A DNA stretch of 64,000 bases from Patescibacteria group bacterium (GTDB lineage Bacteria; Patescibacteriota; Minisyncoccia; RBG-13-40-8-A): the NCBI GenBank assembly GCA_043807255.1, contig JAZDGD010000007.1, positions 17,069 to 81,068 on the forward strand. Reading direction: 5' to 3'. A program made the position numbers and the translations under genes. The notes under the pieces were generated by a model. That model searched no databases. It worked only from the letters and a program-made list of their open reading frames with translations, and had not been told where the DNA came from. This document shows positions 9,776-61,067 of this stretch, in pieces. The first letter of the stretch is position 1; each line of letters opens with the position of its first letter.

Positions 9776-10327
9776 TTATTGAGTTTTTCGCATTTGCTCC
9801 ATAAGTCTTTCGTATTCGTCTATCAAGGGATGTGACCAAGTTTCTTTAAACATTTTCAACATCTCTTCTTCAAACCAAAGCTTTTCTTCTCTTTTGTTAC
9901 TAAATTTTTTCCAAACTTCTGGCCCAATCTGGCTGTAGGTAAAAAGCAAATCTTCCATATTATGAATTTTGTCCGCAATTGAAATCGCTTTCGCCTCATC
10001 AGAACCATTTCGAACCGTTTCCACATATTTAATCTTTTTATCTCTCCATGACAAAGTATCATCGTTCGTAACCATTTTGACCATATCCACAACCTCGTTG
10101 CCCAGCTTATCTCTTAATTCTTGCTCGGTGACGTCCGTGTCTTCTAGGACATCGTGGACTAGAGCAGCAGCAATTACGGCGTCAGAAAAATTATATTTCA
10201 CAAGCTTCATCGCGACTATAAATGGATGAACAACGTAAGGCGAACCATCGTTCTTACGTTTTTGATTTACGTGAGCAATCACCGCGATTCTCGTTGCTTT
10301 TTCAATTAAACCAAGTTCTTGATTCAT
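9776..10327 (-). CDS. HD-domain (p)ppGpp hydrolase-like protein (small alarmone hydrolase, RelA/SpoT-HD family)
   Basis: HPFIVA ... ALVHDVLEDT HD signature. Confidence 0.7.
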   Translation of the reverse strand: MNQELGLIEKATRIAVIAHVNQKRKNDGSPYVVHPFIVAMKLVKYNFSDAVIAAALVHDVLEDTDVTEQELRDKLGNEVVDMVKMVTNDDTLSWRDKKIKYVETVRNGSDEAKAISIADKIHNMEDLLFTYSQIGPEVWKKFSNKREEKLWFEEEMLKMFKETWSHPLIDEYERLMEQMRKTQ

Positions 10328-10344
10328 ATTTTTATAAAATTAAT

Positions 10345-11118
10345 TTAGACGTGAACATCGGGAAAAATATTTTCCACAATTGCTGATCCGTCGGGAGTTA
10401 TTGCTGCTGGATTTCCGGATTCTGTTGCCTCGTGAATTGCTTTAATGTCTTCTTTGGAAAGGATGCGTATTGTTTCTGATTTACTCATTTTATCAAAAAT
10501 TTCCTGTGGAACTTCCAAGGTGAATAATCGGAACAATCTAGCAGTTGGCATTCCCTTTCCACGTTCTGAGGTCTGTACTTTCCATTGGATTGGACTCACC
10601 GTAGATTCATATTCTGTAGAAATCTTGTCTTTTTCTTCTTCAGATACAATGCTCTTTAAATCTCCGATGACTTCTCTCATTGCATCTTCCTCAAATAATG
10701 GATTTTCTTTTTTAAAGAAGAAAGAAAGTACTTTTTCCATATATTGATTACGTTTTTCTGCTGCTTCTTTTTTTTGTTCTTCGGTGTCCCCAGAAAATTC
10801 TTGCATTTCTCTGGGAAGTTCAAGATTAAAACGAGCGTCGTCATTTTCTTCTGCCGGTCTTCCTTGTTTACCGAATTGAGCATTAAATTCTTTTATAAGC
10901 TCTTCTTTCCCTTCTGGCGTAACTTTAACTGCCCCACCCAATGCTTGAAATCTTGGATACTCTTTTCCGTCTTTTTTTAATGATTTATTACGCATTGCAA
11001 TAAAATGAGTCTCTCCAGTTTCTTTAATCCGACATTCGCGCACTAAATTATGAACCGATACATATATTTCTTTATACAGTCCTTCTGGAATTTTAATTGT
11101 TTCTTTTGATTCTTCCAT
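10345..11118 (-). CDS. hypothetical protein
   Basis: ORF only. Confidence 0.4.
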   Translation of the reverse strand: MEESKETIKIPEGLYKEIYVSVHNLVRECRIKETGETHFIAMRNKSLKKDGKEYPRFQALGGAVKVTPEGKEELIKEFNAQFGKQGRPAEENDDARFNLELPREMQEFSGDTEEQKKEAAEKRNQYMEKVLSFFFKKENPLFEEDAMREVIGDLKSIVSEEEKDKISTEYESTVSPIQWKVQTSERGKGMPTARLFRLFTLEVPQEIFDKMSKSETIRILSKEDIKAIHEATESGNPAAITPDGSAIVENIFPDVHV

Positions 11119-30312: not shown

Positions 30313-30373
30313 AGCAATTTTTTAAATTTTAAATGGTATTGAAATATTTTAAAGTTATCCACAGGCGAAAATC

Positions 30374-30401
30374 TTGACATCGGTCTTCTTAATGGTATAC
30401 T
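30374..30401 (+). promoter_or_regulatory. sigma70 promoter TTGACA-16-TATACT, preceded 9 nt upstream by AGTTATCCACAG (30353-30364)
   Basis: Read directly from the sequence. Confidence 0.6.
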
Positions 30402-30407
30402 GATAGT

Positions 30408-30486
30408 GCGGTCGCAAGATTGCCCTGCTCGCGGATGCGAGTCCGAGATTTAAACTTCGCCTTTTAAAGGCGAGGTTTTGTTTTTA
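30408..30486 (+). ncRNA. candidate small RNA of about 75 nt: promoter, internal hairpins, then an intrinsic terminator (30455-30485)
   Basis: The terminator CTTCGCCTTTTAAAGGCGAGGTTTTGTTTTT is plus-oriented. No ORF lies between the promoter and the terminator. Confidence 0.4.
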
Positions 30487-34132: not shown

Positions 34133-34231
34133 CAATCCCAGCAAATTAATCGTTAATCGGTTACGGCCGCATGGTTCGCCCAGCGGCTTTTTTATTTATA
34201 ATTTTGAAAAAGTTATCCACAGACGCCACTA

Positions 34232-34281: not shown

Positions 34282-35841
34282 ATGTTAACAGAAAAACAGC
34301 AAAAAATATTCGATTATATCAAGAAATATATAAAGAAAAATAACTACTCGCCTTCTCTCCAAGAGATCGCGAAACGTTTCAAGTTATCATCGATATCTGG
34401 CGTGCACCAACACGTCGAAGCGCTCAAATCAAAAGGCTATTTAAATAAATTTGAAAATCATCCAAGGACAATCCAAATATCAAATAAATTCAAAAGATTA
34501 AATTTTGTAAAAATACCAATTCTCGGAACCATCACCGCCGGACAACCAATAGAAGTTATTGAAACGCTAGGCGAAACAATTAATGTTTCGAAAAACGAAA
34601 TAAGTCCCTATTTTGATTATTATGCCCTTAAAGTCAAAGGCGACAGTATGATCGATGAGGGAATTTTTGACGGAGATACTGTTGTAATTAAAAAACAATC
34701 TACGGCAGAAAATGGCCAAACAGTGGTCGCCATAATAAATCAGAACGAGGCCACCTTAAAGAAAATCTACAAATTAAAAAATATTTTTAAATTGCAACCG
34801 GCAAATCAGAATATGTTACCAATTTATACAAACGAAATTGAGATTAGAGGTGTTCTCGTTAAAACTATTCCTGGTTTTCCAAGCACAAAAAACCAAACAA
34901 CGATCAGAACCCTGGATTTGTTCGCAGGGATTGGTGGCATACGTCTCGGATTCGAAAAGAATGGATTTGAAACAGTATTCTCTAATGATTTTGACGAAAA
35001 TTGCAAGACAACTTACGATTTAAATTTTAAAACCTCAAAACTTGTTACCGAAGACGTAACTAAAATTGGAATCGATGATTTGCCAGAATTTGATTTCTTG
35101 CTAGCAGGATTTCCGTGTCAAGCATTTTCAATTGCTGGATATCGACAAGGATTCAAGGACGAGAAAGGAAGGGGGAATCTATTTTTCGATATTGCGAGAA
35201 TTATTGACGCCCGGAAACCGAAAGGTTTCTTATTGGAAAATGTTAAGAATCTAATTAGCCACGACAATGGAAAAACGTTTAAAATAATAACGGAAACATT
35301 GAAAAATCTTGGCTATCACATTAAACCCGAAGTTTTAAATAGCATGAATTACGGTAACGTTCCACAAAATCGAGAGAGAATCTATATCGTGGGATTTAAA
35401 GACAAAAATAACATAGAGAAATTTAATTTTCCCGAACCCATAAAACTAGAAACAAAAATCAACGATTTTCTGGAAGAAAACGTTGATAATAAATACTATT
35501 ATAACGACAAGCCTCTCTATAAAAAACTCAAAGATTTTGTAAAAGAAGAAAATAAGATTTATCAATGGCGTAGACAATATGTGCGAGAAAATAAAAAAGG
35601 AGTTTGCCCAACGCTAACAGCAAATATGGGAACCGGCGGACACAATGTGCCAATTATAAAAGACAAAAAAGGAATCAGAAAACTGACTCCTCTTGAATGT
35701 TTTAGGTTGCAGGGTTTTTCGAAAGATTTTATATTGCCCAAATTGGCGGATTCTGTTTTATATAAACAGGCCGGAAATTCCGTAACCGTTTCGGTAGTTG
35801 AAAGAATTGCAAAAAAAATAAAAAGCGTAATGGATAATTAA
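34282..35841 (+). CDS. LexA-like repressor (wHTH plus S24 peptidase with Ala-Gly site, Ser and Lys) fused to a DNA (cytosine-5) methyltransferase
   Basis: N-terminal 200 aa are collinear with LexA (ITAGQP, GDSM, TLKK). The C-terminal part carries FAGIGG (motif I), FPCQAFS (IV), ENVKNL (VI), QNRERIY (VIII) and GNSV (X). Confidence 0.85.
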   Translation: MLTEKQQKIFDYIKKYIKKNNYSPSLQEIAKRFKLSSISGVHQHVEALKSKGYLNKFENHPRTIQISNKFKRLNFVKIPILGTITAGQPIEVIETLGETINVSKNEISPYFDYYALKVKGDSMIDEGIFDGDTVVIKKQSTAENGQTVVAIINQNEATLKKIYKLKNIFKLQPANQNMLPIYTNEIEIRGVLVKTIPGFPSTKNQTTIRTLDLFAGIGGIRLGFEKNGFETVFSNDFDENCKTTYDLNFKTSKLVTEDVTKIGIDDLPEFDFLLAGFPCQAFSIAGYRQGFKDEKGRGNLFFDIARIIDARKPKGFLLENVKNLISHDNGKTFKIITETLKNLGYHIKPEVLNSMNYGNVPQNRERIYIVGFKDKNNIEKFNFPEPIKLETKINDFLEENVDNKYYYNDKPLYKKLKDFVKEENKIYQWRRQYVRENKKGVCPTLTANMGTGGHNVPIIKDKKGIRKLTPLECFRLQGFSKDFILPKLADSVLYKQAGNSVTVSVVERIAKKIKSVMDN

Positions 35842-35844
35842 TAA

Positions 35845-36408
35845 TTACCAAACTTTTACATTACACGCAATTGGTTTTAATTTGCATCTTTCAATGATTT
35901 CTTTAGTTATACTAAATCTTGGTCTTCGTTTTTGTTTTTGTTGTTGCCTTAATGTTTGTTTCTTGTTTACTTTGGCATTAAGTATAAATCTAGATGGAAT
36001 TTTATAGACGTTAAAAGTCCCGTCTAGTTTTTTCTCATTATAAAAATCTAAAAAATACAAATCGTCCCATTGAGATTTTGGGCCAAATGTTGTTAAGTCG
36101 TGCTTTATACTAGATGCCTTTATTTGTTCAGCTCTTTTGGTTTTTAAATTAAATGTATCAAAAGATGTTGATGCTTCTCCCCTTAGGGATATAAATCTTT
36201 TCGAACCCGAAAACAAACAAAACGCCACCTCAGACAGACCCTCTGGCAAATTAGGTTCTCGTGATTTATATTCGCGCATACCTAATTTTAATTTTTTCCA
36301 TATATCAAAAAGTGCTTTCCATTTTTTACTGTCTTCTTTGTCAAAGCTCATGAGTTCCACTAAGCATTCCTTACCAAAGATAACGGTTTTGTATTGATCA
36401 ATATGCAT
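35845..36408 (-). CDS. hypothetical protein; candidate cognate type II restriction endonuclease, inferred only from its convergent position next to the methyltransferase
   Basis: Context only. No recognisable motif. Confidence 0.3.
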   Translation of the reverse strand: MHIDQYKTVIFGKECLVELMSFDKEDSKKWKALFDIWKKLKLGMREYKSREPNLPEGLSEVAFCLFSGSKRFISLRGEASTSFDTFNLKTKRAEQIKASSIKHDLTTFGPKSQWDDLYFLDFYNEKKLDGTFNVYKIPSRFILNAKVNKKQTLRQQQKQKRRPRFSITKEIIERCKLKPIACNVKVW

Positions 36409-40971: not shown

Positions 40972-42507
40972 ATGAATAAAGTTTATTCAGCTGCAACAAC
41001 GGGATTAGACGCCGAACTCATTGAGGTGGAGGCAGATTTATCTTCTGGCCTCCGCTTTTTTAGTATCGTTGGCCTTCCCGACAAATCAGTTGAAGAGTCC
41101 AAGGAAAGAATTGCTGCGGCCATAAAAAATAGTGGAGCCGAACCTCCGCATAAACAAAATAAACGCGTAATTATCAACTTGGCACCTGCCGATTTAAGAA
41201 AAGAGGGTTCGGGATATGACCTACCAATTGCTTTAAGTTTTTTATTGTCATCCCAACAAATAGAATTTGATGCTGAAGACAAAATTTTTGTTGGCGAGCT
41301 TGCCTTAAATGGCGAAGTAAGGAGAGTTAATGGGGTTTTACCAATTTGTTTGGCAGCAAAAGAAAAAGGAATTAAAAATGTTTTTGTCCCAAAGTCAAAC
41401 AGCAATGAAGCACGATTAGTGAAAGATATTAACGTCTATCCTGTTGAATCTTTGGCGGAATTAATCGGATTTTTAGAAAATAGAATTGAAATCAAAGCGT
41501 TAGAACCATTTGATGAAAATTTCTTGGAAGGATTTGAAACTGCATTTCCATCAACAGTAGATATGGCATACATTAAGGGCCAGGAAAACGCTAAACGAGC
41601 ATTAGAAATTGCAGCTAGCGGAAATCATAATATCATTATGACCGGCCCACCTGGGTCTGGAAAAACTTTATTGGCCAAAGCAATTCCCACTATTCTACCG
41701 AGAATGGCATGGAGTGAGGTTTTAGAGGTGACTAAAATTTATAGTGTTTCGGGAAAATTATCCCATAAAAAACCATTCATCCACCAAAGACCATTTCGCT
41801 CTCCCCACCATAGCGCGTCAGAAGCAAGTATGATTGGAGGCGGGGGATTTGCAAGACCAGGAGAAATAACTTTAGCACATCGGGGAGTTCTATTTATTGA
41901 TGAATTTCCAGAAATACATCGTGATGTCTTGGAAAGTTTAAGGCAACCGCTTGAAGATGGAGTTGTGCATATTTCTAGGGCAAAGGCGAGTTATAGTTTT
42001 CCTTCAAGATTTATTTTGGTCGCGGCGATGAACCCCTGTCCTTGCGGATATTATGGCGACCCAGAGAAACAATGCACCTGCAATCAACAACAAATCGGCA
42101 AATATCAGCGCAGAATTTCTGGACCAATTATGGATAGAATTGATTTATATGTTGAAGTGCCACACGTTAAATATGGAAAATTAACCGATGAATCGGTTGA
42201 GGGTTCGAGCGAAGAAATTCGAGAAAAGGTGGAAAAGGCAAGGAAAATTCAATTGGAAAGATTTAAAGATGATAATATTGTTACTAATTCAGAAATGAAC
42301 ATCCCTTTAGTTAAAAAGCATTGCCAGACCGATGAGCAAGGCGAAATGTTATTAAAAAATGCAGTAAATAATCTGCATATGTCTGCGCGTGGATATCATC
42401 GCATTCTTAAGCTCGCCCGCACAATCGCCGATCTCGCCGACATGCCCAATATCACCCACATCCACATCGCCGAAGCATTGCAATATAGACCAAAGATGGA
42501 AATATAG
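40972..42507 (+). CDS. comM: Mg-chelatase-like AAA ATPase YifB/ComM. The track's TTG at 40927 is probably not the start
   Basis: GPPGSGKT and a C-terminal YRPK motif; collinear over about 510 aa. Confidence 0.85.
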   Translation: MNKVYSAATTGLDAELIEVEADLSSGLRFFSIVGLPDKSVEESKERIAAAIKNSGAEPPHKQNKRVIINLAPADLRKEGSGYDLPIALSFLLSSQQIEFDAEDKIFVGELALNGEVRRVNGVLPICLAAKEKGIKNVFVPKSNSNEARLVKDINVYPVESLAELIGFLENRIEIKALEPFDENFLEGFETAFPSTVDMAYIKGQENAKRALEIAASGNHNIIMTGPPGSGKTLLAKAIPTILPRMAWSEVLEVTKIYSVSGKLSHKKPFIHQRPFRSPHHSASEASMIGGGGFARPGEITLAHRGVLFIDEFPEIHRDVLESLRQPLEDGVVHISRAKASYSFPSRFILVAAMNPCPCGYYGDPEKQCTCNQQQIGKYQRRISGPIMDRIDLYVEVPHVKYGKLTDESVEGSSEEIREKVEKARKIQLERFKDDNIVTNSEMNIPLVKKHCQTDEQGEMLLKNAVNNLHMSARGYHRILKLARTIADLADMPNITHIHIAEALQYRPKMEI

Positions 42508-42544
42508 TTATCCACAGTATTAACTATTGACAAACATATCTTAT

Positions 42545-42922
42545 ATGATATATACTGATTCTAATGAATATAAAGTAAAATTTTTCGTTGATCCCAAAAC
42601 AGGAAAAGATCCAGTTATGAAATACATTAATGATTTAGACGAAAAACAGAAAGCAAAAGTTTCTAGATTTATCGAATTTTTAAGACAACACGAAGGCGTA
42701 TTAGATGAGCCATACTCAAAACACATTAAAGGCAAAATTCGCGAATTAAGGATTGATTTTGGCAAAAATAGACACAGAATCTTCTATTTTACGTTCATCA
42801 ACAAGAACATCATATTGCTCCACGCATTTTTAAAGCATACGCAAAAAACTCCTGAAACTGAGATAAAAATCGCTGAAAATAATTATAATATTGTAATTAA
42901 TAATCCAAAATTTTATGAATAA
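42545..42922 (+). CDS. higB: HigB/Gp49-like (RelE/ParE superfamily) toxin. Start uncertain: alternatives are 42617 or the TTG at 42527, which is more likely a -35 hexamer
   Basis: IRELRIDFGKNRHRIFYF ... LLHAFLK, similar to Gp49/HigB-2. Confidence 0.6.
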   Translation: MIYTDSNEYKVKFFVDPKTGKDPVMKYINDLDEKQKAKVSRFIEFLRQHEGVLDEPYSKHIKGKIRELRIDFGKNRHRIFYFTFINKNIILLHAFLKHTQKTPETEIKIAENNYNIVINNPKFYE

Positions 42923-43205
42923 AAAAATAAAAGCAAGAGATTTTCAAAAATACCTTGCTCAACAATTAAAAAATCCCGAATTCAAGAGACACTACGATGA
43001 TTACGGCAAACAATTAGAAATTGCTTACCAGATTTTGAAGTTGCGAAAACAGAGAAATATGTCCCAGTTACAATTAGCCAGAAAGATTAAAACCAAGCAA
43101 AGCAATATCGCCCGAATCGAAGCTGGCAAACAAAATCTTAGCATTCAAACCCTCGACAGCATCGCCCGCGCATTAAACAGCAATTTTACAGTCAACTTTT
43201 CGTAA
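42915..43205 (+). CDS. higA: HTH XRE-family antitoxin (HigA-like)
   Basis: HTH (LRKQRNMSQLQLARKIKTKQSNIARIE). Overlaps the toxin stop. Confidence 0.65.
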   Translation: MNKKIKARDFQKYLAQQLKNPEFKRHYDDYGKQLEIAYQILKLRKQRNMSQLQLARKIKTKQSNIARIEAGKQNLSIQTLDSIARALNSNFTVNFS

Positions 43206-43317
43206 AATCCACATCGCCGAAGCGTTGCAATATAGACCGAAGATGGAGGTATGATAAAATTTTCAATTTTCAATTTCTAATTTACAATGAATTTTTAATG
43301 ATTAAATTTTCAAACCC

Positions 43318-43455
43318 ATGACCAAGAAAATAAAAGCAAGAGATTTCCAAAAATATCTTGCCGAACAATTAAAAAATCCTGAATTTAAGAAACATTACGA
43401 TAAATTCGGCAAAAAATTAAGGCAGAATTATAAAAAAAGCGAAATACATGATTAA
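43318..43455 (+). pseudogene. truncated second copy of the HigA-like antitoxin (N-terminal 45 codons only)
   Basis: MTKKIKARDFQKYLAEQLKNPEFKKHYD, against MNKKIKARDFQKYLAQQLKNPEFKRHYD in the intact copy. Confidence 0.55.
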
Positions 43456-43900
43456 AACATGGCCATTGGGATACAAAGAAGCTAGGCGTAGGGCTAAAAA
43501 GATTTATTCTAAGATAGGAAGGATACAATGCCCTTGTTTAGATAACGAATACATATCATTTAATAGAGACGGATTTGATCATTTAGTATACAAGGGTCGT
43601 ATTTCTAGAACAAAAAATGAACAGAAAAAACGATTTGTCCTAATAGAATATGCTGAGCAAATAATTAAACAATCTACATCTTATAGTTACGAGGAAAGGG
43701 AGATGGAACGTAAAATATTAAATAAATATCGACAGAGGATTCTTGTTAAGTCTAAAGCACGATTCTGGACTTTTTCTCTGTCAATAAAGGGTTGCGAAGT
43801 AAAGCTCGTTGTAATACAAATCGGCGAAGGATTCAAAAGATTTTGTAGCATCATGGGAGATAAAGTAAAAATAAGTCGCGGAAAAACAAAAACCCCCTAA
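43448..43900 (+). CDS. hypothetical protein (150 aa)
   Basis: ORF. A terminator hairpin at 43888-43915 follows. Confidence 0.4.
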   Translation: MIKTWPLGYKEARRRAKKIYSKIGRIQCPCLDNEYISFNRDGFDHLVYKGRISRTKNEQKKRFVLIEYAEQIIKQSTSYSYEEREMERKILNKYRQRILVKSKARFWTFSLSIKGCEVKLVVIQIGEGFKRFCSIMGDKVKISRGKTKTP

Positions 43901-44133
43901 AATAAGAGGGGTTTTGGTGTGCCTGCCATCAGCTTTGATGCCGATTGGAGTCTAAACGACTCCGCAAGCACACTATAATCATAGTTTATGAAAAATATCG
44001 TGTCAAGCCCTTGTACTGGATCTGAAATTTCAGTCTTTAAATTAAATCTTAACCATTTGACTCTTAGGGCAAAACACTTGCTGATTCTAATTTTTAGGAT
44101 TATGATCTGGGCATAAGAATTAAATATAAATTT

Positions 44134-44508
44134 ATGTGGAACATTATTCGCTACATCTTGGAAGTTGCTCTGGGATTTTCAGCTATTTATTTCTATATAG
44201 AAAACAGAAGGCTCAAAGGATTTGAAATTGAAAGAGATATTGATCTTAAAGAAATAGAACTTGATGAATTAAATCGTCAATATTTAAAGGAAACAGGAGA
44301 CGAAATAAATCGTCTCGAAAAAGGACTCGGGGGACATTGGGGAATATCAATGGATGGTGCTGTAGATATCGGGTTAAAGAATAAATACGATATAAAAATT
44401 AAAAAAGTGAATGCCGAAAAAGAATACTTATATAAACTCCGGGATTACAGATGGATTTTTAGTAGACCCAAAAAACAACAAATAAATCTATGGAAAGTAA
44501 AAAAATAA
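44134..44508 (+). CDS. hypothetical protein with an N-terminal TM and a coiled-coil
   Basis: ORF only. Confidence 0.4.
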   Translation: MWNIIRYILEVALGFSAIYFYIENRRLKGFEIERDIDLKEIELDELNRQYLKETGDEINRLEKGLGGHWGISMDGAVDIGLKNKYDIKIKKVNAEKEYLYKLRDYRWIFSRPKKQQINLWKVKK

Positions 44509-44512
44509 ATTT

Positions 44513-44905
44513 ATGACACTTGAAGAAGCGGATAAAATTTTTAAAGTTTGGAAAGAATATGTTTACCCAATAGATTGGTTCTTGAGTTCCGCTTTTTTCT
44601 GTAGTTCTATCCCAGAATCGTTCTTGCCATACCCAATAGATGTTCTCTGGGAAGCATTAGATATTGTTGCTAAACATTATTGGGACATGGGAGATCGTAA
44701 ATATAGCAAAATCGTACAGGAGGCAACGGGTTTATTGGGAGGTTATCAAAAAGATGATGAAGCAATCGATGATATGATAGAAAAATACAAAAGCCGTCTT
44801 ACTAAGCCCGAATGGAGAGAAATTTATATCAAAAGCATCAAAGCAAGTGTAAAGAATTGGATGGATTGGATAGAAAGAGGCAAACAACCACTAGGAGAAA
44901 AATAA
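44513..44905 (+). CDS. hypothetical protein (130 aa)
   Basis: ORF only. Confidence 0.4.
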   Translation: MTLEEADKIFKVWKEYVYPIDWFLSSAFFCSSIPESFLPYPIDVLWEALDIVAKHYWDMGDRKYSKIVQEATGLLGGYQKDDEAIDDMIEKYKSRLTKPEWREIYIKSIKASVKNWMDWIERGKQPLGEK

Positions 44906-44913
44906 ATAAATCC

Positions 44914-45486
44914 ATGGAGCCAGAAAAAAAATTTAAAGAAGAACTGATTAAAGATCTGAATCTTCTTAATTCGAATTGGATTGATGGAGACGAAGAGAGT
45001 GGCTCGAAGAAGAAAGCCGATATAGTAAATCACTCGTTAAAAATAGCCATAGAGATTAAAGATGATACAAATTACAGGATAGCATTTGCGACGGAACCAG
45101 GAGTAATGACTGGACAAGGCATCGACATGGAAAAAATGAATCAAAGATTTAGCGACCACATAAAGTCGGCAGATAATAAGTTCAAAGAATATTCCGACTA
45201 CAAAACAATTCTTATTTTAAGAACGGAGTTTCTCTTAGAAAAAATCATTGGATATGCCATAGAGGGCTGCCACTCATATTTGCTACAAGATAGAAAATTA
45301 ATATATGCGGGCAGAAGAAAAAAATACTCCAAATATTGTGGACGTGAAATAGGTTGCTTTCTCATATTTATCAATAGAGAAAAATATTATCTTTCAAATA
45401 ACCTGGCAAAAGACAATAGAATTGTTCTGAAAAATGACGCGGAGAGTATTTTGGGACTTGCCCTCAATGACGTGCCAGCGATCTAG
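44914..45486 (+). CDS. hypothetical protein with a PD-(D/E)xK-like motif (ADIV...IAIEIKDD). The start is taken at MEPEKKF rather than the track's 44812
   Basis: D-x12-E-I-K arrangement. Sits in a putative island context. Confidence 0.35.
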   Translation: MEPEKKFKEELIKDLNLLNSNWIDGDEESGSKKKADIVNHSLKIAIEIKDDTNYRIAFATEPGVMTGQGIDMEKMNQRFSDHIKSADNKFKEYSDYKTILILRTEFLLEKIIGYAIEGCHSYLLQDRKLIYAGRRKKYSKYCGREIGCFLIFINREKYYLSNNLAKDNRIVLKNDAESILGLALNDVPAI

Positions 45487-45517
45487 ATAGAAATTTAATG
45501 GAAATATAAAGGACCAC

Positions 45518-45784
45518 TTATCGAGTGGCCCTTTTGAGTTTAACGCAGGGGAAGTAGAATTCGTATCCGGACAACATACGTTCTCCGGTTTTTTCGTTGG
45601 TACAAATGTCTTCCAATAAGCACAAGGCGCAGGCAATAAATCCTTCTCCGACGAATTTACTGTCTCCGTATTTTACAAATATAACCTCCTTACCCACAAA
45701 ACATTCTCTTGCTTCGAAATGAAATGCTCCCCCTCCCAGTTCGACAATTTCGCATTTGTCCCCAGGATTAAAAATTTTTTGCAT
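45518..45784 (-). CDS. small Cys-rich hypothetical protein (88 aa). The start is reassigned to the Met that has a GGAGG SD
   Basis: SD GGAGG lies 6 nt upstream. The track's upstream 25 codons are encoded by the palindromic operator. Confidence 0.45.
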   Translation of the reverse strand: MQKIFNPGDKCEIVELGGGAFHFEARECFVGKEVIFVKYGDSKFVGEGFIACALCLLEDICTNEKTGERMLSGYEFYFPCVKLKRATR

Positions 45785-45828
45785 GTGCGCCTCCTTCATT
45801 TCAATATAGCATACGATAATAGACACGC

Positions 45829-45863
45829 ATAGATGTACGGAGAACTGTTCTCCGTACATCTAT
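45829..45863. promoter_or_regulatory. perfect 16-bp inverted repeat with a 3-nt spacer (ATAGATGTACGGAGAA ctg TTCTCCGTACATCTAT) upstream of the small Cys-rich gene; putative operator
   Basis: Read directly from the sequence. Confidence 0.55.
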
Positions 45864-56007: not shown

Positions 56008-58164
56008 ATGAGAATAAAAATGAAATCAAAATTAAACATAAAAACAATATCCGTTATATCTTGCGTGGCTTTAATCTGCCTGATTGTGCCAATAGCCACC
56101 CACGCTGGTGTTGGCGAGACTATAGCAAGATGGCTTTTTAATGGATTGGCAAGCGTCGTGATGGAAATAGCTAAATTGTTTGTGAATTTGGGAATAAAAA
56201 TAATTGATACAATACTGAAGATTGGCTTTTCTGGCGCCTACAGAAGCATAGCGGAAAGTGGTTGGAAAACCTCTCAAGGCATTGCCAATATGTTTTTCAT
56301 TTTAATAATGGTTTTTATTGCGTTCGCAACAATATTGAGGATTGAAAAGTATGGAGTTAAAAAATTATTGCCCAGACTACTTGGTGTGGCCTTATTGATA
56401 AATTTCAGTTTACCTTTAACATATCTGATGATAGATATTAGCAATATAACAGCAAGAACATTTGTAAATCAACTGACCGGATTAGAGAACAACCTTGGTG
56501 GTAGATTAGTAGACGGACTGAGGGCGAATCTTATGTTGATAGATGATACTTGTGATTTGCCAGATAATGAGGTTTGCCCCGGATCAATGCAACGAGAAGA
56601 ACGAGAGGCGTGCTGGACAAAAGTTTACGATGACGAACATGAGTGCGAAAGAAAGCAGAAAATAGCAAAGGCAGCCCAAGCCACTGCGCCCCCTGTTCAA
56701 GATTTTTGGGAAATAGTAGCAACGTCGCTCGTTTCAGCTGGATTTATGATGTTGGCCGCATTAGTCTTAATTGCCGCAGGGTTAATGCTTATAGTTAGAT
56801 TGATATCCTTGGCAATTCTGGTGATACTTGCTCCTCTGGCTTTTATTTGTTATGCAACCCCATCCTTAGATAAATATGCGAAGGAATGGTGGTCTAATTT
56901 ATTGAAATGGTGTTTCTTTGCTCCTGTCTTTACCTTCTTCTTTTGGTTGGCAGTAAAAAATATTGAGAATTTAAAGTCATTAGGACAATACAACTCAAAA
57001 GTTGACGGAGGGTTGACAAGATTTATAGCAAATACTTCGGATTCTGCTGCTTACTTTATATTTCTTGGTTTAATTTTGGGAGGAATGATAGTCGCTCAAA
57101 AATTAGGAGTAACCGGAGCAGCTGCAACGATGGGCATCGCCAAAAAATGGCAAAAAGGTGCAACCGATTGGGCGAAAAGAAAAACAGTCGATAAAGGAGT
57201 TCGCTTGGGTCAAATGGCTGGTGGTGCAGCACAAAGAGCAGGAGGTGGTCTGATTAAAAAAATTCCTGGGTTCAGAACTTATGGAGCAAAAATGGAGGTT
57301 AAAGGAAAAGAAATGCAACAGAAAATGCTTAAAGCCAAAGACGTTGAAAAAGCAAAGAGAATGTATGAGCAATTTTCGCCCGAAGATCTATCTAATGCAA
57401 TGAATAGCAAAGTCATGAATCTAAGTCCTGCTGAAAAACTAGCATTAGCGCAAGTTGCATCTAGCGATAAATTTAAAAATAAAATTGATGCGAAAGCAGC
57501 CGACAGAGCTGCGGGCACTCTTAAGACTTTTGGCTATGGAAAAGAAGCTAATGATCTAAGGGATGCTAGAATAGACAGCGAACAAACTCAGACAGGACTA
57601 GAAAGCAGAATTGATGAGATGCGAGACAAAGGAGAACTTACAAATATGTCAGCAAAAGCACTTGAAGACCCAAGAGTCATTCAGTATTTAGCAAAAATTT
57701 GTAAGGCAGAAGAATTGGAAGCAATACGTAATAAATCAGGAAAACACGGACTTGCCCTTGTCGGCACAGCACCAACCACCGCGAACCCGATGGGTAGTGG
57801 CCTTACAGGAATGGCAAGCACCATCAGCACCACCAATCCAAATTATCAGGCAGTACAACATGCCTATGCATCACAGTCTGGAGACGCACAGTCACTGATG
57901 GCAAGAGGTCAGTTAAATTCATACGCTGCGACAGCTGGAATTAATGCGTTCAGGAGAGATAGATTTAAATTTAGTACTCCTCCAAGTCCTCAAATTGCAG
58001 GATCGCTTGCTGCCAACATCCCGCTTGCCGATCTAAAAGAAACCCTCCAAAAGGCAGATCCAAAATTAGCTGTAGCGGTCGTCGCCGCAATCAGGAGATT
58101 ATTCCCGACGGGACATCCAAAAAGAGCAATGGTGGACAATGATCAATGGCTAAAATCACTGTAA
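56008..58164 (+). CDS. VirB6/TrbL-like polytopic membrane protein with a long hydrophilic C-terminal extension
   Basis: Signal plus at least five TM segments, in a T4SS-like context. Confidence 0.5.
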   Translation: MRIKMKSKLNIKTISVISCVALICLIVPIATHAGVGETIARWLFNGLASVVMEIAKLFVNLGIKIIDTILKIGFSGAYRSIAESGWKTSQGIANMFFILIMVFIAFATILRIEKYGVKKLLPRLLGVALLINFSLPLTYLMIDISNITARTFVNQLTGLENNLGGRLVDGLRANLMLIDDTCDLPDNEVCPGSMQREEREACWTKVYDDEHECERKQKIAKAAQATAPPVQDFWEIVATSLVSAGFMMLAALVLIAAGLMLIVRLISLAILVILAPLAFICYATPSLDKYAKEWWSNLLKWCFFAPVFTFFFWLAVKNIENLKSLGQYNSKVDGGLTRFIANTSDSAAYFIFLGLILGGMIVAQKLGVTGAAATMGIAKKWQKGATDWAKRKTVDKGVRLGQMAGGAAQRAGGGLIKKIPGFRTYGAKMEVKGKEMQQKMLKAKDVEKAKRMYEQFSPEDLSNAMNSKVMNLSPAEKLALAQVASSDKFKNKIDAKAADRAAGTLKTFGYGKEANDLRDARIDSEQTQTGLESRIDEMRDKGELTNMSAKALEDPRVIQYLAKICKAEELEAIRNKSGKHGLALVGTAPTTANPMGSGLTGMASTISTTNPNYQAVQHAYASQSGDAQSLMARGQLNSYAATAGINAFRRDRFKFSTPPSPQIAGSLAANIPLADLKETLQKADPKLAVAVVAAIRRLFPTGHPKRAMVDNDQWLKSL

Positions 58165-58186
58165 TTTGTATTTAAAAATAATCTAG

Positions 58187-58600
58187 ATGCAATTTCAAGT
58201 ACCACAATTTATTGATATTGAGGACAAGGTTATTGGTCCCATGACAATCAAACAATTCCTGTATTTATTAACATCAGGAGTAACAATATTTATTATTTAT
58301 AAGATATTAAATATTGTTGCCACGATAATTTTAGCGATACCAATTGCCGGAATCGGAATTGCTCTCGCCTTCGTAAGGGTTAGCAACCAGCCATTTGTTA
58401 ATTTTATTAAAAACTTTATGGGCTTTATCAAAAAACCCGATTTCTACGTTTGGAAAAAACCGATTGGCAAAAACAATCTTCCCGAACAAACAGAAGAACG
58501 CGTCGAAATCATAAAGAAAATGCCAGCAAAGACCAAATTAAACCAAGAAACAAAAGATAATTTGCAGGATATGAGTTGGAAAGTAGAAATTGAAAAATAA
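58187..58600 (+). CDS. PrgI-family (VirB3-like) small membrane protein
   Basis: MQFQVPQFIDIEDKVIGPMTIKQF followed by two TM segments. Confidence 0.6.
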   Translation: MQFQVPQFIDIEDKVIGPMTIKQFLYLLTSGVTIFIIYKILNIVATIILAIPIAGIGIALAFVRVSNQPFVNFIKNFMGFIKKPDFYVWKKPIGKNNLPEQTEERVEIIKKMPAKTKLNQETKDNLQDMSWKVEIEK

Positions 58601-59243
58601 TAATTCTATGCCCACAAACACAAAACTTCCGAAGAACGCCAGCGCGGTGCAAAAATTTGTTGAAATCCAGGAAATCAAAAATGGATTAGCAATAATGAAA
58701 GACAACAGCATCAGATCTGTCTGTGCTTGTTCATCTATAAATTTTGATTTATTAAGCCAAACCGAACAAGAAGCTGTTATTAATCGTTTTCAAGAATTTT
58801 TGAATTCCATTGACTTCCCCCTGCAAATCATCGTTGCCTCCCGTCATTTTCAAGTTGAAGGGTATTTAAATCAAATTCGCGAATTAGAAAAAGTCCAAAC
58901 CAATGAATTGTTAAAAATCCAGACCAATGAATATATCAATTTCGTCGATAGCTTTGTGGAATTTGCAAACATAATGAATAAATCATTCTATGTAATCGTA
59001 CCGTTTAATATTGTTGAAACAAAAGATGAAGGATTTATGACAAGAATAAAGAATATTGTTAGTTCCAGTAAGCCAAAAAAAACTAGATTCGAACCAGAAA
59101 AACTAAGTCAGTATAAAGCACAATTAGATCAAAGAATTAATTTGGTCGCTCAAGGACTTCAGGCGTTAGGAATAAAAACCATTCCCTTAAATGATGAACA
59201 GCTAACGCAGTTATATTTCGAGTTTTATAATATCGAAAAGTAA
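58590..59243 (+). CDS. VirB4/TrbE-like N-terminal domain, encoded separately from the ATPase domain
   Basis: Same reading frame as 59289..61067; separated from it by TAA and TGA stops. Confidence 0.45.
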   Translation: MKNNNSMPTNTKLPKNASAVQKFVEIQEIKNGLAIMKDNSIRSVCACSSINFDLLSQTEQEAVINRFQEFLNSIDFPLQIIVASRHFQVEGYLNQIRELEKVQTNELLKIQTNEYINFVDSFVEFANIMNKSFYVIVPFNIVETKDEGFMTRIKNIVSSSKPKKTRFEPEKLSQYKAQLDQRINLVAQGLQALGIKTIPLNDEQLTQLYFEFYNIEK

Positions 59244-59288
59244 TCATCCGCAATCCGCTGATTAGCATTAAATTCGCATATTCGCATT

Positions 59289-61067
59289 ATGTTCAGAAAA
59301 AAACAAACAATAGATAAAATTGCTGAAATTGAGGAAACAAAAGAAATTGAAAGCACGTTGGCAGATACAATTTCTCCTTCGGCTCTTCAAATTACTTCAA
59401 ATTATATTCAAATCGGTGAAAAATTCGCCCGAACGTTTTTTATAATTACCTATCCCCGATTCTTAACTGTAAATTGGTTATCGCCGATTATCAATTTGGA
59501 CAGAATATTTAATTTGGCAATGTTTGTGCATCCTACTGACACGGGAATAATTTTAAAAAAATTAAGACGCAAGGTAACTCAAATTCAATCACAAATCAAC
59601 TCCGAACAAGAGGCGGGAAAAGTTAGAAATCCGATTTTGGAAACTGCCAGCAGTGATGTTGAAGACCTGCGAGACAAATTAATTCAGGGAACGGAAAAAT
59701 TTTTTAAATACTCACTTTATATCACCATCTTTGAAGATTCTCTTGAAAAACTCAATGAAGCAGAAGAACAAATTATGGGAATCTTTGAGGCAAAGATGAT
59801 TTATGCCAAACCAGCGATATTCCAACAACAAATTGGATTAAATTCTACATTCCCGTTCGGCAAAGACCAATTATTTATTACTAATTCTCTAAACACCGCC
59901 CCACTTTCAACTATCTTTCCATTTGTCTCTTCTAATCTGTCGTCAAATAAAGGAATCCTCTATGGAATCAATCGCCACAATAACAGCTTGATAATTTTCG
60001 ATAGATTTTCGATGGAAAATGGCAATATGGTGATTTTTGGAAAATCAGGAGGAGGAAAGTCGTATGCAGTAAAAGTAGAAATTTTAAGATCTTTGATGTT
60101 TGGAACTGACGTAATAGTTGTTGACCCAGAAAACGAATATCAACATTTGGCCGAAACAGTTGATGGCGCATACTTTAAAATATCACTAACCTCCGATAGT
60201 CATATTAATCCTTTTGACCTTTCAATTCCCGATGGAGACGAAACAACCGAAGATGTTGTGCGTTCAAAAATAATGGATTTAATTGGCCTTTTAAGAGTTG
60301 CCCTGGGAGAATTAACCCCCGAAGAGAATTCCATTTTAGACAGGGCATTAACCGAAACATACGCCTCAAAAGATATTACTTTCCAATCAGACCTTAAAAA
60401 TATCACGCCACCACTAATGCAAGACCTGGAAACAGTTTTAAATAATATGGAAGGAGGTGACAGAATTGCTAAGCGACTCGAAAGATACACCAAGGGCAGT
60501 TTCGCGGGATTTTTGAACCAGCCCACAAATATTGATATTAACAAAGGCCTTATTGTTTTCAGCACTCGAGATATGGAAGACGAATTAAAACCAGTAGCGA
60601 TGTATTTAATCTTACAATATATATGGAATTTAATCCGCTCTCAATTAAAAAAACGCATTATGATTGTCGACGAGGCCTGGTGGATGTTAAAGAGTGAGGC
60701 GGGGGGATCATTTTTGCACGGCATAGCCAAAAGATGCAGAAAATATTGGCTTGGGTTGACCACAATTACTCAAGACATCCCCGATTTTATGAATTCTGCC
60801 TACGGCAAACCAATTGTCTCTAATTCTTCGATTCAAATACTTTTCAAACAATCCCCTTCAACGATTGAGGTTGTGCAACAAACATTTAATTTGACTGATG
60901 AAGAAAAATATTTATTATTGCAAGCAGACGTTGGTGAAGGAATTTTCTTCGCTGGATTAAAACATGCCGCAATAAAGGTGGTTGCATCCTATACTGAAGA
61001 TCAAATTGTTACGACCAATCCAGAACAAATCGCAAAAATTAATCAAGCAAAAGAGGATTTAAAATAA
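59289..61067 (+). CDS. VirB4/TraC/TrbE-family conjugation or T4SS ATPase (C-terminal ATPase part)
   Basis: Walker A FGKSGGGKS and Walker B VVDEAW. Confidence 0.75.
   Translation: MFRKKQTIDKIAEIEETKEIESTLADTISPSALQITSNYIQIGEKFARTFFIITYPRFLTVNWLSPIINLDRIFNLAMFVHPTDTGIILKKLRRKVTQIQSQINSEQEAGKVRNPILETASSDVEDLRDKLIQGTEKFFKYSLYITIFEDSLEKLNEAEEQIMGIFEAKMIYAKPAIFQQQIGLNSTFPFGKDQLFITNSLNTAPLSTIFPFVSSNLSSNKGILYGINRHNNSLIIFDRFSMENGNMVIFGKSGGGKSYAVKVEILRSLMFGTDVIVVDPENEYQHLAETVDGAYFKISLTSDSHINPFDLSIPDGDETTEDVVRSKIMDLIGLLRVALGELTPEENSILDRALTETYASKDITFQSDLKNITPPLMQDLETVLNNMEGGDRIAKRLERYTKGSFAGFLNQPTNIDINKGLIVFSTRDMEDELKPVAMYLILQYIWNLIRSQLKKRIMIVDEAWWMLKSEAGGSFLHGIAKRCRKYWLGLTTITQDIPDFMNSAYGKPIVSNSSIQILFKQSPSTIEVVQQTFNLTDEEKYLLLQADVGEGIFFAGLKHAAIKVVASYTEDQIVTTNPEQIAKINQAKEDLK

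Follow-up and report, generated by a model that had tools for sequence, protein, structure and literature searches.

How Patescibacteria gain genes is poorly understood; integrases are scarce in these bacteria and natural competence is thought to be the dominant route. From the genetics of Streptococcus and Acinetobacter, insertion-duplication (a Campbell-type single crossover) and homology-facilitated illegitimate recombination are known to accompany natural transformation. For e14 and icd/icdC, recombination between the tail copies upon excision yields a functional chimeric gene (PMC13626634). In Acinetobacter baumannii, the Tn7-like elements AbaR and Tn6022 carry tns genes and interrupt comM, with short target-site duplications (PMC11014353). 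Finally, a study of type II toxin-antitoxin hot spots in Photorhabdus described fast gain and erosion, acquisition being linked to transposases and integrases (PMC13617665).

Here, we analysed a comM locus of a Patescibacteria bacterium, located in a 64-kb stretch of DNA hereafter called the window. A working comM is followed by a higBA cassette, joined to it inside the comM stop codon, and then by a 47-nt relic of the comM end (DR2). Beyond DR2 lie a spacer, higA' with an ORF150/small-RNA module and three cargo ORFs, and at the distal end of the islet a tail relic of 12 nt is joined to the native comM terminator, with the native neighbour gene after it. The insert amounts to 0.75 kb for higBA and 3 kb in total. 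The landmarks of comM and of its duplicated ends are the following:

40972–42507, + strand: comM, encoding a YifB/Mg-chelatase-like AAA+ competence helicase; intact, 511 aa, stop TAG
42460–42507, + strand: DR1, the last 15 codons of the working comM and its stop TAG
43207–43254, + strand: DR2, a 47-nt relic of the comM 3' end, 15 codons and stop TGA, beginning 1 nt past the higA stop
43255–43321, + strand: spacer after the DR2-type tail, kept 3' of the intact comM in the related genome L086
45498–45509, + strand: third comM relic, ATGGAAATATAA, the last 3 codons and the native TAA stop
45511–45535, + strand: native comM terminator hairpin, GGACCACT-TATC-GAGTGGCC, then CTTTT
45518–45859, − strand: ORF113, the native downstream neighbour of comM, at which the variable islet ends

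The window ComM carries the Pfam domains Mg_chelatase (E=1.9e-93), ChlI and Mg_chelatase_C and is 92% identical to the ComM proteins of L001 and L002; exact-protein look-ups for ComM, HigA and ORF150 gave no record.

We first describe the repeat, which lies where an initial annotation of this DNA had placed it. Positions 42460–42505 and 43207–43252 are identical at 42 of 46 sites, and a 41-mer of the repeat occurs, with up to 3 mismatches, in two places only in the 64 kb (0 expected from shuffles); no further copy of the 47-mer was found in the window. Both copies are in frame, coding for IHIAEALQYRPKME(I/V), and both end in a stop as had been reported, TAG at 42505–42507 for DR1 and TGA at 43252–43254 for DR2, the latter followed by TAA. 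Within the 15 codons we counted 4 differences, all A>G, and not five as originally described: three synonymous third-position changes (42477, 42492 and 42501) instead of four, and the Ile>Val change already noticed, which at 42502 falls on a first codon position, contrary to the claim that all the differences were at third positions. The stop codons differ as well. A foreign comM tail carried in by the cassette, for which a GC bump at 42400–42470 made a candidate, was rejected, as the GC-rich stretch codes for ARTIADLA, which is conserved in all relatives.

The window comes from a metagenome-assembled genome, in which mis-joins are possible at short repeats, and a collapsed or chimeric join could have duplicated the comM end. 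We give such an assembly or binning artefact a negligible chance: the two copies differ at 4–6 positions, the same junction between higA and the 47-nt comM relic was found again in independent assemblies from other samples (L084 and L089–L092), and a longer version is present in the complete chromosome of L002. The copy differences and the independent assemblies thus rule out an assembly duplication, which the initial annotation had named as fatal to its reading.

Comparing the comM 3' regions of related genomes, as had been proposed, revealed distinct structural states of the site. First, the site is empty in L081, L088 and L008, where comM and its TAA stop lead directly into a hairpin homologous to the native terminator of the window and then into an ORF113-like neighbour; ORF113 is syntenic in these three genomes and in L002 and L086. 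Second, L086 has an intact comM with a DR2-type tail (...MEV-TGA-TAAAATT) and no higBA, followed by the same spacer and then by the distal 12-nt relic with its terminator. This working tail is the best match of the window DR2, including the shared MEV-TGA-TAAAATT, and DR2 has the derived Val and the GCG-TTG alleles seen in the functional tails of the nearest relatives, L085 and L086. L086, whose comM works with that very tail and its downstream spacer, therefore bears out the proposed origin of the second copy as a displaced or alternative comM 3' end. Third, L002 has a 252-nt copy of the comM tail with 11 differences, nearly all synonymous, and the homologous terminator hairpin comes after this copy; its two tail copies are 95% identical, and the species differ by about 16%. 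Fourth, the L001 group retains a 27-nt relic with L001-specific synonymous codons. The third relic of the window can be aligned to the end of comM in L008 and in L002 copy 2, and occurs also in L086, at 1771–1782. ATGGAAATATAA has a single exact copy in the window and such a 12-mer alone is not significant, so that our reading of it as a relic relies on its synteny with the terminator.

Among about 90–96 Patescibacteria comM loci, tail relics above noise were found only in the higBA-carrying genomes of this clade; a general Patescibacteria hot spot was thereby rejected, as the relics are confined to one genus-level clade. A 47-bp repeat acting as a defined att site was rejected too, the length of the relic varying among 252, 47, 27 and 12 nt as expected of eroded duplications. 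In all likelihood, one Patescibacteria genus has a small variable islet, nested in structure, between comM and a LysM/CHAP peptidase gene.

The cassette between DR1 and DR2 comprises the following features:

42506–42517, + strand: AGTTATCCACAG motif, the 5' end of the higBA cassette, overlapping the last two bases of the comM stop
42527–42556, + strand: TTGACA-N18-TATACT promoter-like pair, 11/12 consensus matches, with the higB ATG (42545) inside
42545–42922, + strand: higB, a toxin gene of the RelE/ParE superfamily, Gp49/HigB family, 125 aa
42915–43205, + strand: higA, an antitoxin gene with an XRE-type HTH, 96 aa, overlapping higB by 8 nt

The two genes are those initially named: HigB matches Gp49 (PF05973, E=6.9e-23) and HigA matches HTH_3 (E=5.2e-14). 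In the PDB, HigB hits the HigB of 6af3 (E=4.9e-14) and HigB1 of M. tuberculosis (E about 7e-5), and no sequence match was obtained for HigA. More than 800 homologues of HigB were found, most of them from Patescibacteria, and its 125-aa start is consistent with NCBI protein P0001. With a HigB/Gp49 domain and an XRE-HTH antitoxin encoded downstream and overlapping the toxin gene, higBA is by its sequence an ordinary type II toxin-antitoxin pair. A reversed partial higBA was seen near the comM of L050.

AGTTATCCACAG contains a perfect DnaA-box-like TTATCCACA and has three exact copies in the window (30353, 34211 and 42506, against 0.16 expected), each located 9–10 nt 5' of a TTGAYW-N17/18-TATAMT pair. 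The cassettes of L001, L002, L084 and L089 likewise begin with this motif, as does that of L095, where the higBA homologue stands in a non-comM context; no direct repeats of the upstream gene's tail were found there. The comM stop is TAA in the empty-site genomes and TAG in the window, L001 and L002. Because the cassette 5' end, (A)GTTATCCACA, is also found in L095 away from comM, we place the cassette junction at the comM stop codon.

The TTGACA-N18-TATACT pair encloses a palindrome, ATATC-N6-GATAT (42536–42551), and four genomes with about 80% identity elsewhere have kept this promoter/palindrome stretch; the palindrome is a probable candidate for the HigA operator. The initial annotation had placed a cassette promoter here with the shared motif. 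The cassette does begin with AGTTATCCACAG, but the pair is not the promoter of full-length higB, since the sole conserved higB start (ATG 42545) lies in its spacer. This position suggests that higB is transcribed from comM, and as no terminator was found between comM and higBA, the two are probably co-transcribed.

The segments beyond DR2 carry additional cargo:

43318–43455, + strand: higA', a 45-codon ORF whose first 34 codons are homologous to the higA N-terminus; no HTH domain
43448–43900, + strand: ORF150, a small protein with a weak LPD3 match
43888–43971, − strand: candidate structured small RNA, convergent with ORF150 and sharing a terminator with it
44134–45486, + strand: ORF124, ORF130 and ORF224, cargo of the inner (older) insertion, with no family matches

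The truncated antitoxin copy reported after DR2 is real: higA' and the first 102 nt of higA share 85% identity, and 27 of the first 34 residues match. The 8 synonymous and 7 non-synonymous differences correspond to pS 0.49 and pN 0.08 (pN/pS about 0.17), and the 45-residue product has no Pfam match. higA' is absent from L086; it adjoins the unrelated ORF150 and small-RNA module, and the whole segment 43322–44075 is an indel relative to L086. As no remnant of higB or TTATCCACA was found between DR2 and higA', we rejected higA' as the relic of an earlier higBA in the same place. The serial cassette turnover deduced from this fragment is thus upheld by other evidence, namely the third relic with the native terminator (45498–45535), and not by higA', which shows no visible earlier higBA. 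A side reading, to which we give little credence, is that HigA' is a working mini-antitoxin instead of debris: it keeps the N-terminal segment corresponding to the one that neutralises the toxin in its V. cholerae analogue, HigA2 (PMC5416850), and has the low pN/pS of about 0.17.

Homologues of ORF150 occur singly, between housekeeping genes, in L100–L107. The candidate small RNA is predicted to fold with a dG of −46.2 kcal/mol (z = −8.2), has in our promoter scan its own promoter TTGACA-N17-TATGAT at 44006–43978, and is also conserved behind homologues of ORF150, where both compensatory and G-U pairs are consistent with the minus strand; no Rfam match was found for it. A leader at 44076–44136 is common to L086, and its 3' part also to L002, in each case before different ORFs.

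Taking these states together, the duplicated comM tails are very probably insertion footprints left by recombination via the 3' end of the gene. DNA would have entered at least twice through the comM 3' end, each insertion keeping the comM frame complete and leaving a duplicated tail beyond the insert. DR2 would have been the functional comM end before higBA came between, or again after loss of the cassette, which is the state of L086. The recombination would be the host's own, homologous or homology-facilitated, and would proceed by insertion-duplication or cassette exchange with DNA from related strains. The duplicated tail could then provide a short arm of homology through which double crossovers bring in further DNA, and recombination between DR1 and DR2 could lead to precise loss of the cassette, no dedicated recombinase being required in cis. 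Subsequent erosion of the relics by deletion would account for their lengths of 252, 47, 27 and 12 nt. Host-driven insertion-duplication or cassette exchange is, tentatively, the process we consider most likely, as inferred from its footprints: the 252-, 47-, 27- and 12-nt duplications, L086 as the 'excised' state, and a conflict between gene trees.

This conflict concerns L081, which groups with L002 in comM (99%) and with the window in uvrD and pnp; we therefore conclude that homologous exchange has taken place at the locus between these species. All the genomes compared differ by 12–20% in DNA. At the repeat itself, DR1 has the GCA allele at 42475–42477 that is common to all higBA-linked comM tails, a site that reads GCG or GCC in relatives without higBA, and the window comM resembles that of L088 until the last codons. 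In DR2, the changeover from cassette-linked to native-type alleles must fall within the first 17 nt; for RecA-dependent exchange this is a short distance, unless a longer relic was present when it occurred.

It is also conceivable, albeit rather unlikely, that a single ancient insertion was inherited vertically and was followed by lineage-specific deletions and precise repeat-mediated losses, DR2 being then a fossil with no ongoing traffic. The divergence of higBA between genomes (79–85% identity) equals that of comM (82–85%), the relics of L084 and L089 retain outgroup-like alleles (GCC/GCT CTG) that fit an old frozen copy, and the type I junction spans both phylogenetic groups. Such a history needs at least 3 independent precise losses (in L081, L088 and L085/L086), and the 95% identity of the two L002 copies and the L001-specific codons need gene conversion or recent events. 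It also has to accommodate a window DR2 that bears the derived alleles of the L085/L086 functional tails. The gene trees are explained as parsimoniously by three gains as by three losses. The junction common to the window (group A) and L084/L089 (group B) would be either ancient, with several losses, or the product of horizontal spread.

The main alternative to host recombination for the founding event is an integrase-borne element whose attP carried a surrogate comM 3' end, DR1 and DR2 being attL and attR, and which has since decayed, losing its integrase and most of its cargo. We regard it as improbable on balance, although direct repeats of the target's 3' end, an intact target, empty sites and nested tandem arrays all fit it, and the pattern equals that of e14 in icd/icdC (PMC13626634). 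Islands of such kind often carry toxin-antitoxin modules, and an integrase active at the founding event and deleted since would give an identical footprint. The integrase or recombinase that the initial annotation proposed to look for nearby was found neither in the islet, nor in the 30–62 kb region, nor at the variant loci: the islet ORFs and all ORFs of at least 88 aa in 30–62 kb gave no Pfam match to an integrase or transposase (Phage_integrase, Resolvase, rve, DDE), PHROGs and PADLOC returned no recombinase among the islet ORFs, and none was seen in any of the ten structural variants or within 12 kb on either side. Near the site there is no tRNA, tmRNA or known RNA that could be an integration target, and the viral contigs searched gave 0 matches to the comM tail pattern and no relatives of HigB or ORF150. 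An integron cassette was rejected too, since no integrase was found and the repeat search showed no imperfect inverted repeat resembling attC at either end of the cassette.

The tails themselves also speak against such an element. The working comM tail looks native nearly to the stop in the window, L001 and L002, and the cassette boundary lies inside the stop codon; a long surrogate tail brought by an element is therefore disfavoured. Lineage-specific synonymous variants are present in both copies. Moreover, no segment is common to all relics: the 47-nt pairs have in common CACATCGC(C/T)GAAGC, and this 5' block is absent from the 27-nt and 12-nt relics, an absence that erosion could explain.

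Overall, the initial annotation is partly supported, and the locus is a familiar kind of insertion scar that calls for no new mechanism; by itself, it is an ordinary trace of genome plasticity. What it offers is a clean series of states (empty, single insert, nested inserts) for a small islet in bacteria of the candidate phyla radiation, in which the relic tails indicate the relative order of insertions and constitute a ready-made test of integrase-free cassette exchange. For annotators, short in-frame comM fragments 3' of comM are to be read as scars and not as genes. The toxin-antitoxin module would also have rewired the comM stop codon and downstream transcription. A bolder extrapolation, to which we give little credence, would make the comM tail a portable homology arm: small cassettes, higBA among them, that carry or adjoin a copy of its last 12–250 nt would move between related Patescibacteria, with gain, exchange and precise loss brought about by natural transformation and host recombination alone, at an integrase-free exchange site located at the competence helicase gene itself, where higBA is coupled to comM transcription.

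Compared with known systems, the window HigBA is like the family that includes S. pneumoniae HigBA (6af3) and V. cholerae HigBA2 in its toxin-first order, 8-nt overlap, HigB fold, HTH antitoxin and 5' palindrome; what sets it apart, as known here from sequence, is that the sole conserved higB start lies inside the predicted promoter spacer. As in the Photorhabdus hot spots, a toxin-antitoxin pair occupies a small spot of high turnover with conserved flanks, nearby remnants and a patchy distribution; unlike in those, no transposase or integrase was found, and the duplication of the comM tail is an extra feature. The initial annotation had invoked comM as a known hot spot for genomic islands, but the Acinetobacter case is a Tn7-like transposition that interrupts comM, a different mechanism (PMC11014353). 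The only likeness to AbaR and Tn6022 is the name of the target gene, as the window lacks tns genes, its comM is intact (511 aa) and the repeat consists of 47 nt of the gene's own tail. The resemblance to e14 and icd/icdC is closer: the repeats, the intact target and the empty site were all found, without a recombinase gene, the displaced 3'-end copy lies past the insert with mostly synonymous or conservative differences, and L086 resembles the e14-type outcome of excision, a chimeric functional gene. However, e14 brings an integrase of its own for site-specific excision, whereas the relic at our locus varies from 12 to 252 nt among genomes and the boundary falls at the stop codon and not within the gene. 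Insertion-duplication is known from laboratory constructs and transformation experiments, and at the window locus it is read from footprints only; the likeness lies in a single stretch of homology, the comM tail, doubled around the insert in a reversible manner with no dedicated recombinase.

A working comM gene and a copy of its last codons flank a higBA toxin-antitoxin pair in this low-GC DNA (35% GC), and further inserts follow downstream:

40972-42507, + strand: comM, an intact 511-aa YifB/ComM-type AAA+ protein (Pfam Mg_chelatase, E=1.9e-93; ChlI; Mg_chelatase_C)
42460-42507: DR1, the last 15 codons of comM and its stop, TAG
42545-42922: higB, between DR1 and DR2 (Pfam Gp49/PF05973, E=7e-23; PDB HigB 6af3, E=5e-14)
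42915-43205: higA, between DR1 and DR2 (HTH_3, E=5e-14)
43207-43254: DR2, the comM tail copy, stop TGA; its first base lies 1 nt past the higA stop codon
43318-43455: higA', a fragment keeping 34 N-terminal higA codons, without the HTH domain
43448-44010: ORF150 module; ORF150 on the + strand (weak LPD3 match), RNA candidate at about 43971-43888 on the - strand
45498-45509: ATGGAAATATAA, the putative distal comM relic, directly before the native terminator
45511-45535: native terminator hairpin, between the distal relic and the native neighbour ORF113

The recurrence of the comM tail at 42460 and 43207, reported in the initial annotation, was borne out: DR1 and DR2 match at 42/46 positions, and a search with a 41-mer at a tolerance of 3 mismatches returned them as the sole sites (0 expected). 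The coding part carries four A>G differences. These are not all at third positions, as had been stated; three are third-position synonymous changes and the fourth is a first-position change, ATA>GTA (Ile>Val). The stop codons also differ (TAG vs TGA).

We then compared comM 3' regions across related genomes and loci (L handles), as the annotation had proposed. A ComM scan of a genome collection gave 80 loci, a degenerate comM-tail pattern run against metagenomes gave 8 more, and HigB homologue look-ups added extra loci; the relatives' deposits are labelled Patescibacteria, 'Saccharibacteria' or Paceibacterota metagenome-assembled genomes. Across the islet, our name for the interval that separates comM from the convergent LysM/CHAP peptidase gene, the collected loci form a series of states, including empty, L086-like and nested ones:

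L081, L088 and L008: empty site; comM TAA, then directly a hairpin terminator and an ORF113-like gene
L086: intact comM ending …ATGGAGGTTTGA-TAAAATT… (DR2-type tail), then a spacer matching window 43255-43321; without higBA
Window, L084 and L089-L092: comM, higBA, 47-nt comM tail relic; higA/relic junction identical throughout
L001, L082, L087 and L099: comM, higBA, ORF106, 27-nt relic
L002 (complete 626-kb chromosome): comM, higBA, small ORF, NUDIX-like gene, 252-nt comM tail copy, native terminator

The two L002 tail copies differ at 11 sites, nearly all synonymous, and their central 120 nt are identical. With relics of 252, 47, 27 and 12 nt across loci, the fixed 47-bp repeat of the initial annotation did not hold. 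Since tail relics above background are confined to higBA-bearing genomes of the clade (96 loci tested), they reflect a lineage-specific history and not a general Patescibacteria hot spot. In L050 (Magasanikbacteria; 10093-10561, minus strand), a partial higB and a higA of the same family lie reversed about 560 nt downstream of comM, and no relic of the comM tail accompanies them; the arrangement may be coincidental or may mark a second tie of this toxin-antitoxin family to the comM 3' region.

DR2 is a copy of the comM tail that has eroded, not a fixed-length att site. Its alleles (GCG-TTG, GAG-GTA, TGA) are those of functional tails in the nearest relatives, L085 and L086, and DR1 has the GCA allele common to all higBA-linked tails. 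The second copy had thus been rightly regarded, in kind, as a displaced comM tail, given that L086 has a DR2-type tail as its comM end. Working comM is native-looking in each lineage up to the left junction, and lineage-specific synonymous codons are common to both tail copies in L001 and L002. The native comM stop is TAA; it is TAG in the window, L001 and L002. Because the 5' end of the cassette, (A)GTTATCCACA, also precedes a 68%-identical HigB in the non-comM context of L095, the left cassette junction falls within the stop codon of comM.

The window order is comM; higBA; the 47-nt DR2; a spacer, higA', ORF150 with the small-RNA candidate, ORF124, ORF130 and ORF224; then the 12-nt relic and native terminator. 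The distal 12-mer is not significant by itself; its position, its alignment with the comM ends of L002 copy 2 and L008, and the identical arrangement in L086, where other small ORFs precede ATGGAAATATAA joined to the native terminator, support its reading as a comM relic. Since DR2 is accompanied by this distal relic with the native terminator and ORF113, the window represents nested inserts at the comM end, and the serial turnover proposed earlier was right in kind. A leader at 44076-44136 (3' part …AAGAATTAAATAYAAATTTATG) is conserved in L086 (~925-979) and L002 (~10234-10254) ahead of wholly different small ORFs, which suggests ORF exchange behind a common leader or promoter inside the islet.

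The 45-codon higA' had been taken as a sign of this turnover. The fragment is real, differing from higA by 8 synonymous and 7 non-synonymous changes (pS 0.49, pN 0.08), but an earlier complete higBA in place is unsupported, as neither higB nor a cassette-promoter relic was found upstream. Moreover, the higA' stop overlaps the ORF150 start (ATGATTAA), segment 43322-44075, which has CAAAC/CAAAAC microhomology at both edges, is missing from L086, and ORF150 homologues elsewhere are solitary inserts that housekeeping genes flank and that lack a HigA-like partner. For these reasons, higA' is no direct evidence that a complete higBA once stood here and records another rearrangement, in line with toxin-antitoxin erosion in hot spots (PMC13617665). 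Residual function is possible by analogy, since in V. cholerae HigA2 it is the N-terminal segment that neutralises the toxin (PMC5416850).

The RNA candidate, ~85 nt and convergent with ORF150, is strongly structured (dG -46.2, z -8.2) and carries a consensus promoter of its own, with one terminator serving both it and ORF150; its compensatory and G-U pairs are consistent with the minus strand, and Rfam gave no family match. The pair also occurs as a solitary insertion in other Patescibacteria (L100, L101-L104, L105, L106, L107), and may constitute a protein/small-RNA selfish or toxin-antitoxin-like module. In L105 the ORF150 homologue adjoins PrgI/TraC-like genes. The window itself carries, downstream of the studied region (56008-61067), a type IV secretion-like cluster (TrbL/VirB6-like, PrgI-like and TraG/VirB4-like P-loop ATPase genes).

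The shared motif assigned to the cassette promoter is indeed present. The 12-mer AGTTATCCACAG occurs three times in the window (30353-30364, 34211-34222 and 42506-42517; 0.16 expected), each copy followed 9-10 nt downstream by a strong -35/-10 pair; the perfect DnaA-box-like TTATCCACA inside it occurs five times (0.7 expected). It also lies at L095 ~3975 and L101 ~3590 (minus strand), with gaps to the -35/-10 of ~8 and ~3 nt, respectively; these occurrences include other genera and positions before unrelated genes. AGTTATCCACAG looks like a transcription-factor site, possibly for DnaA, common to a few promoters, several on mobile or defence-like genes. The promoter assignment itself fits higB less well: ATG 42545, the sole in-frame higB start conserved in relatives (in frame in L001 and L002; L084 uses an ATG close by), falls in the spacer of TTGACA-N18-TATACT, within a palindrome ATATC-N6-GATAT. 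The 125-aa start is identical to that of NCBI protein P0001. From this position, and because the comM-higB gap holds no terminator, full-length higB probably depends on read-through transcription coming from comM upstream; the promoter predicted here, we infer, would yield a transcript without the higB start codon. That transcript would start, within 42527-42580, at an out-of-frame mini-ORF of 4 codons (ATGAATATAAAGTAA), which L002 conserves with GTG as its start and L001 less clearly. Another AGTTATCCACAG copy lies upstream of a single ORF (34282-35841, +) joining a LexA DNA-binding domain, S24 peptidase and C-5 cytosine DNA methylase, convergent with a Bsp6I-like restriction endonuclease (35845-36408, -); this unusual fusion may be a restriction-modification controller. 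The strong promoter at 30353-30405 faces a GC-rich ~60-nt stretch (GATAGTGCGGTCGCAAGATTGCCCTGCTCGCGGATGCGAGTCC…; 30390-30460, +) with no same-strand ORF or Rfam match, which may be a further small RNA.

Trees built from the pnp, comM, peptidase and uvrD genes yield two groups. The window, L088, L081, L002, L085 and L086 formed group A, and L001, L089 and L084 group B. Trees of adjacent genes conflict strongly: in comM, L081 joins L002 (99% bootstrap), and in uvrD and pnp its partner is the window, which indicates homologous exchange between species-level lineages at the locus. HigBA is patchy, present in all group B members and, within group A, only in the window and L002; three gains and three losses explain this equally well. 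As higBA divergence (79-85%) equals that of comM, no recent higBA transfer is visible. The integrase or recombinase that the annotation suggested seeking nearby was not detected: Pfam (islet ORFs and all ORFs >=88 aa in 30-62 kb) and PHROGs and PADLOC (islet ORFs) revealed no integrase, transposase or other recombinase, none was called in any variant locus of the relatives, and the comM tail was not found in viral contigs. An integrase-borne founder element that later lost its integrase nevertheless remains a serious rival, as the same footprint would be expected. The reading with the best support has host recombination acting through the comM tail, by insertion-duplication or cassette exchange, after which the distal tail copy would erode; precise insert loss could then occur by recombination between repeats, an outcome that L086 looks like.

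Together, the initial interpretation was largely right in kind, its codon positions, fixed repeat length, Acinetobacter analogy and higA' origin being wrong or unsupported. The comM-tail case is a new example of an already known footprint type; less ordinary are the side observations on the ORF150/small-RNA module, on the DnaA-box-like motif found with promoters and on the LexA-methylase fusion. In Acinetobacter, the hot spot at comM reflects Tn7-like transposition, which disrupts the gene (PMC11014353); it is no parallel to the window, where comM is intact. The nearest documented analogue of the comM-tail repeats is e14 in icd: when e14 excises, icd and the displaced tail icdC recombine into a functional chimera (PMC13626634).
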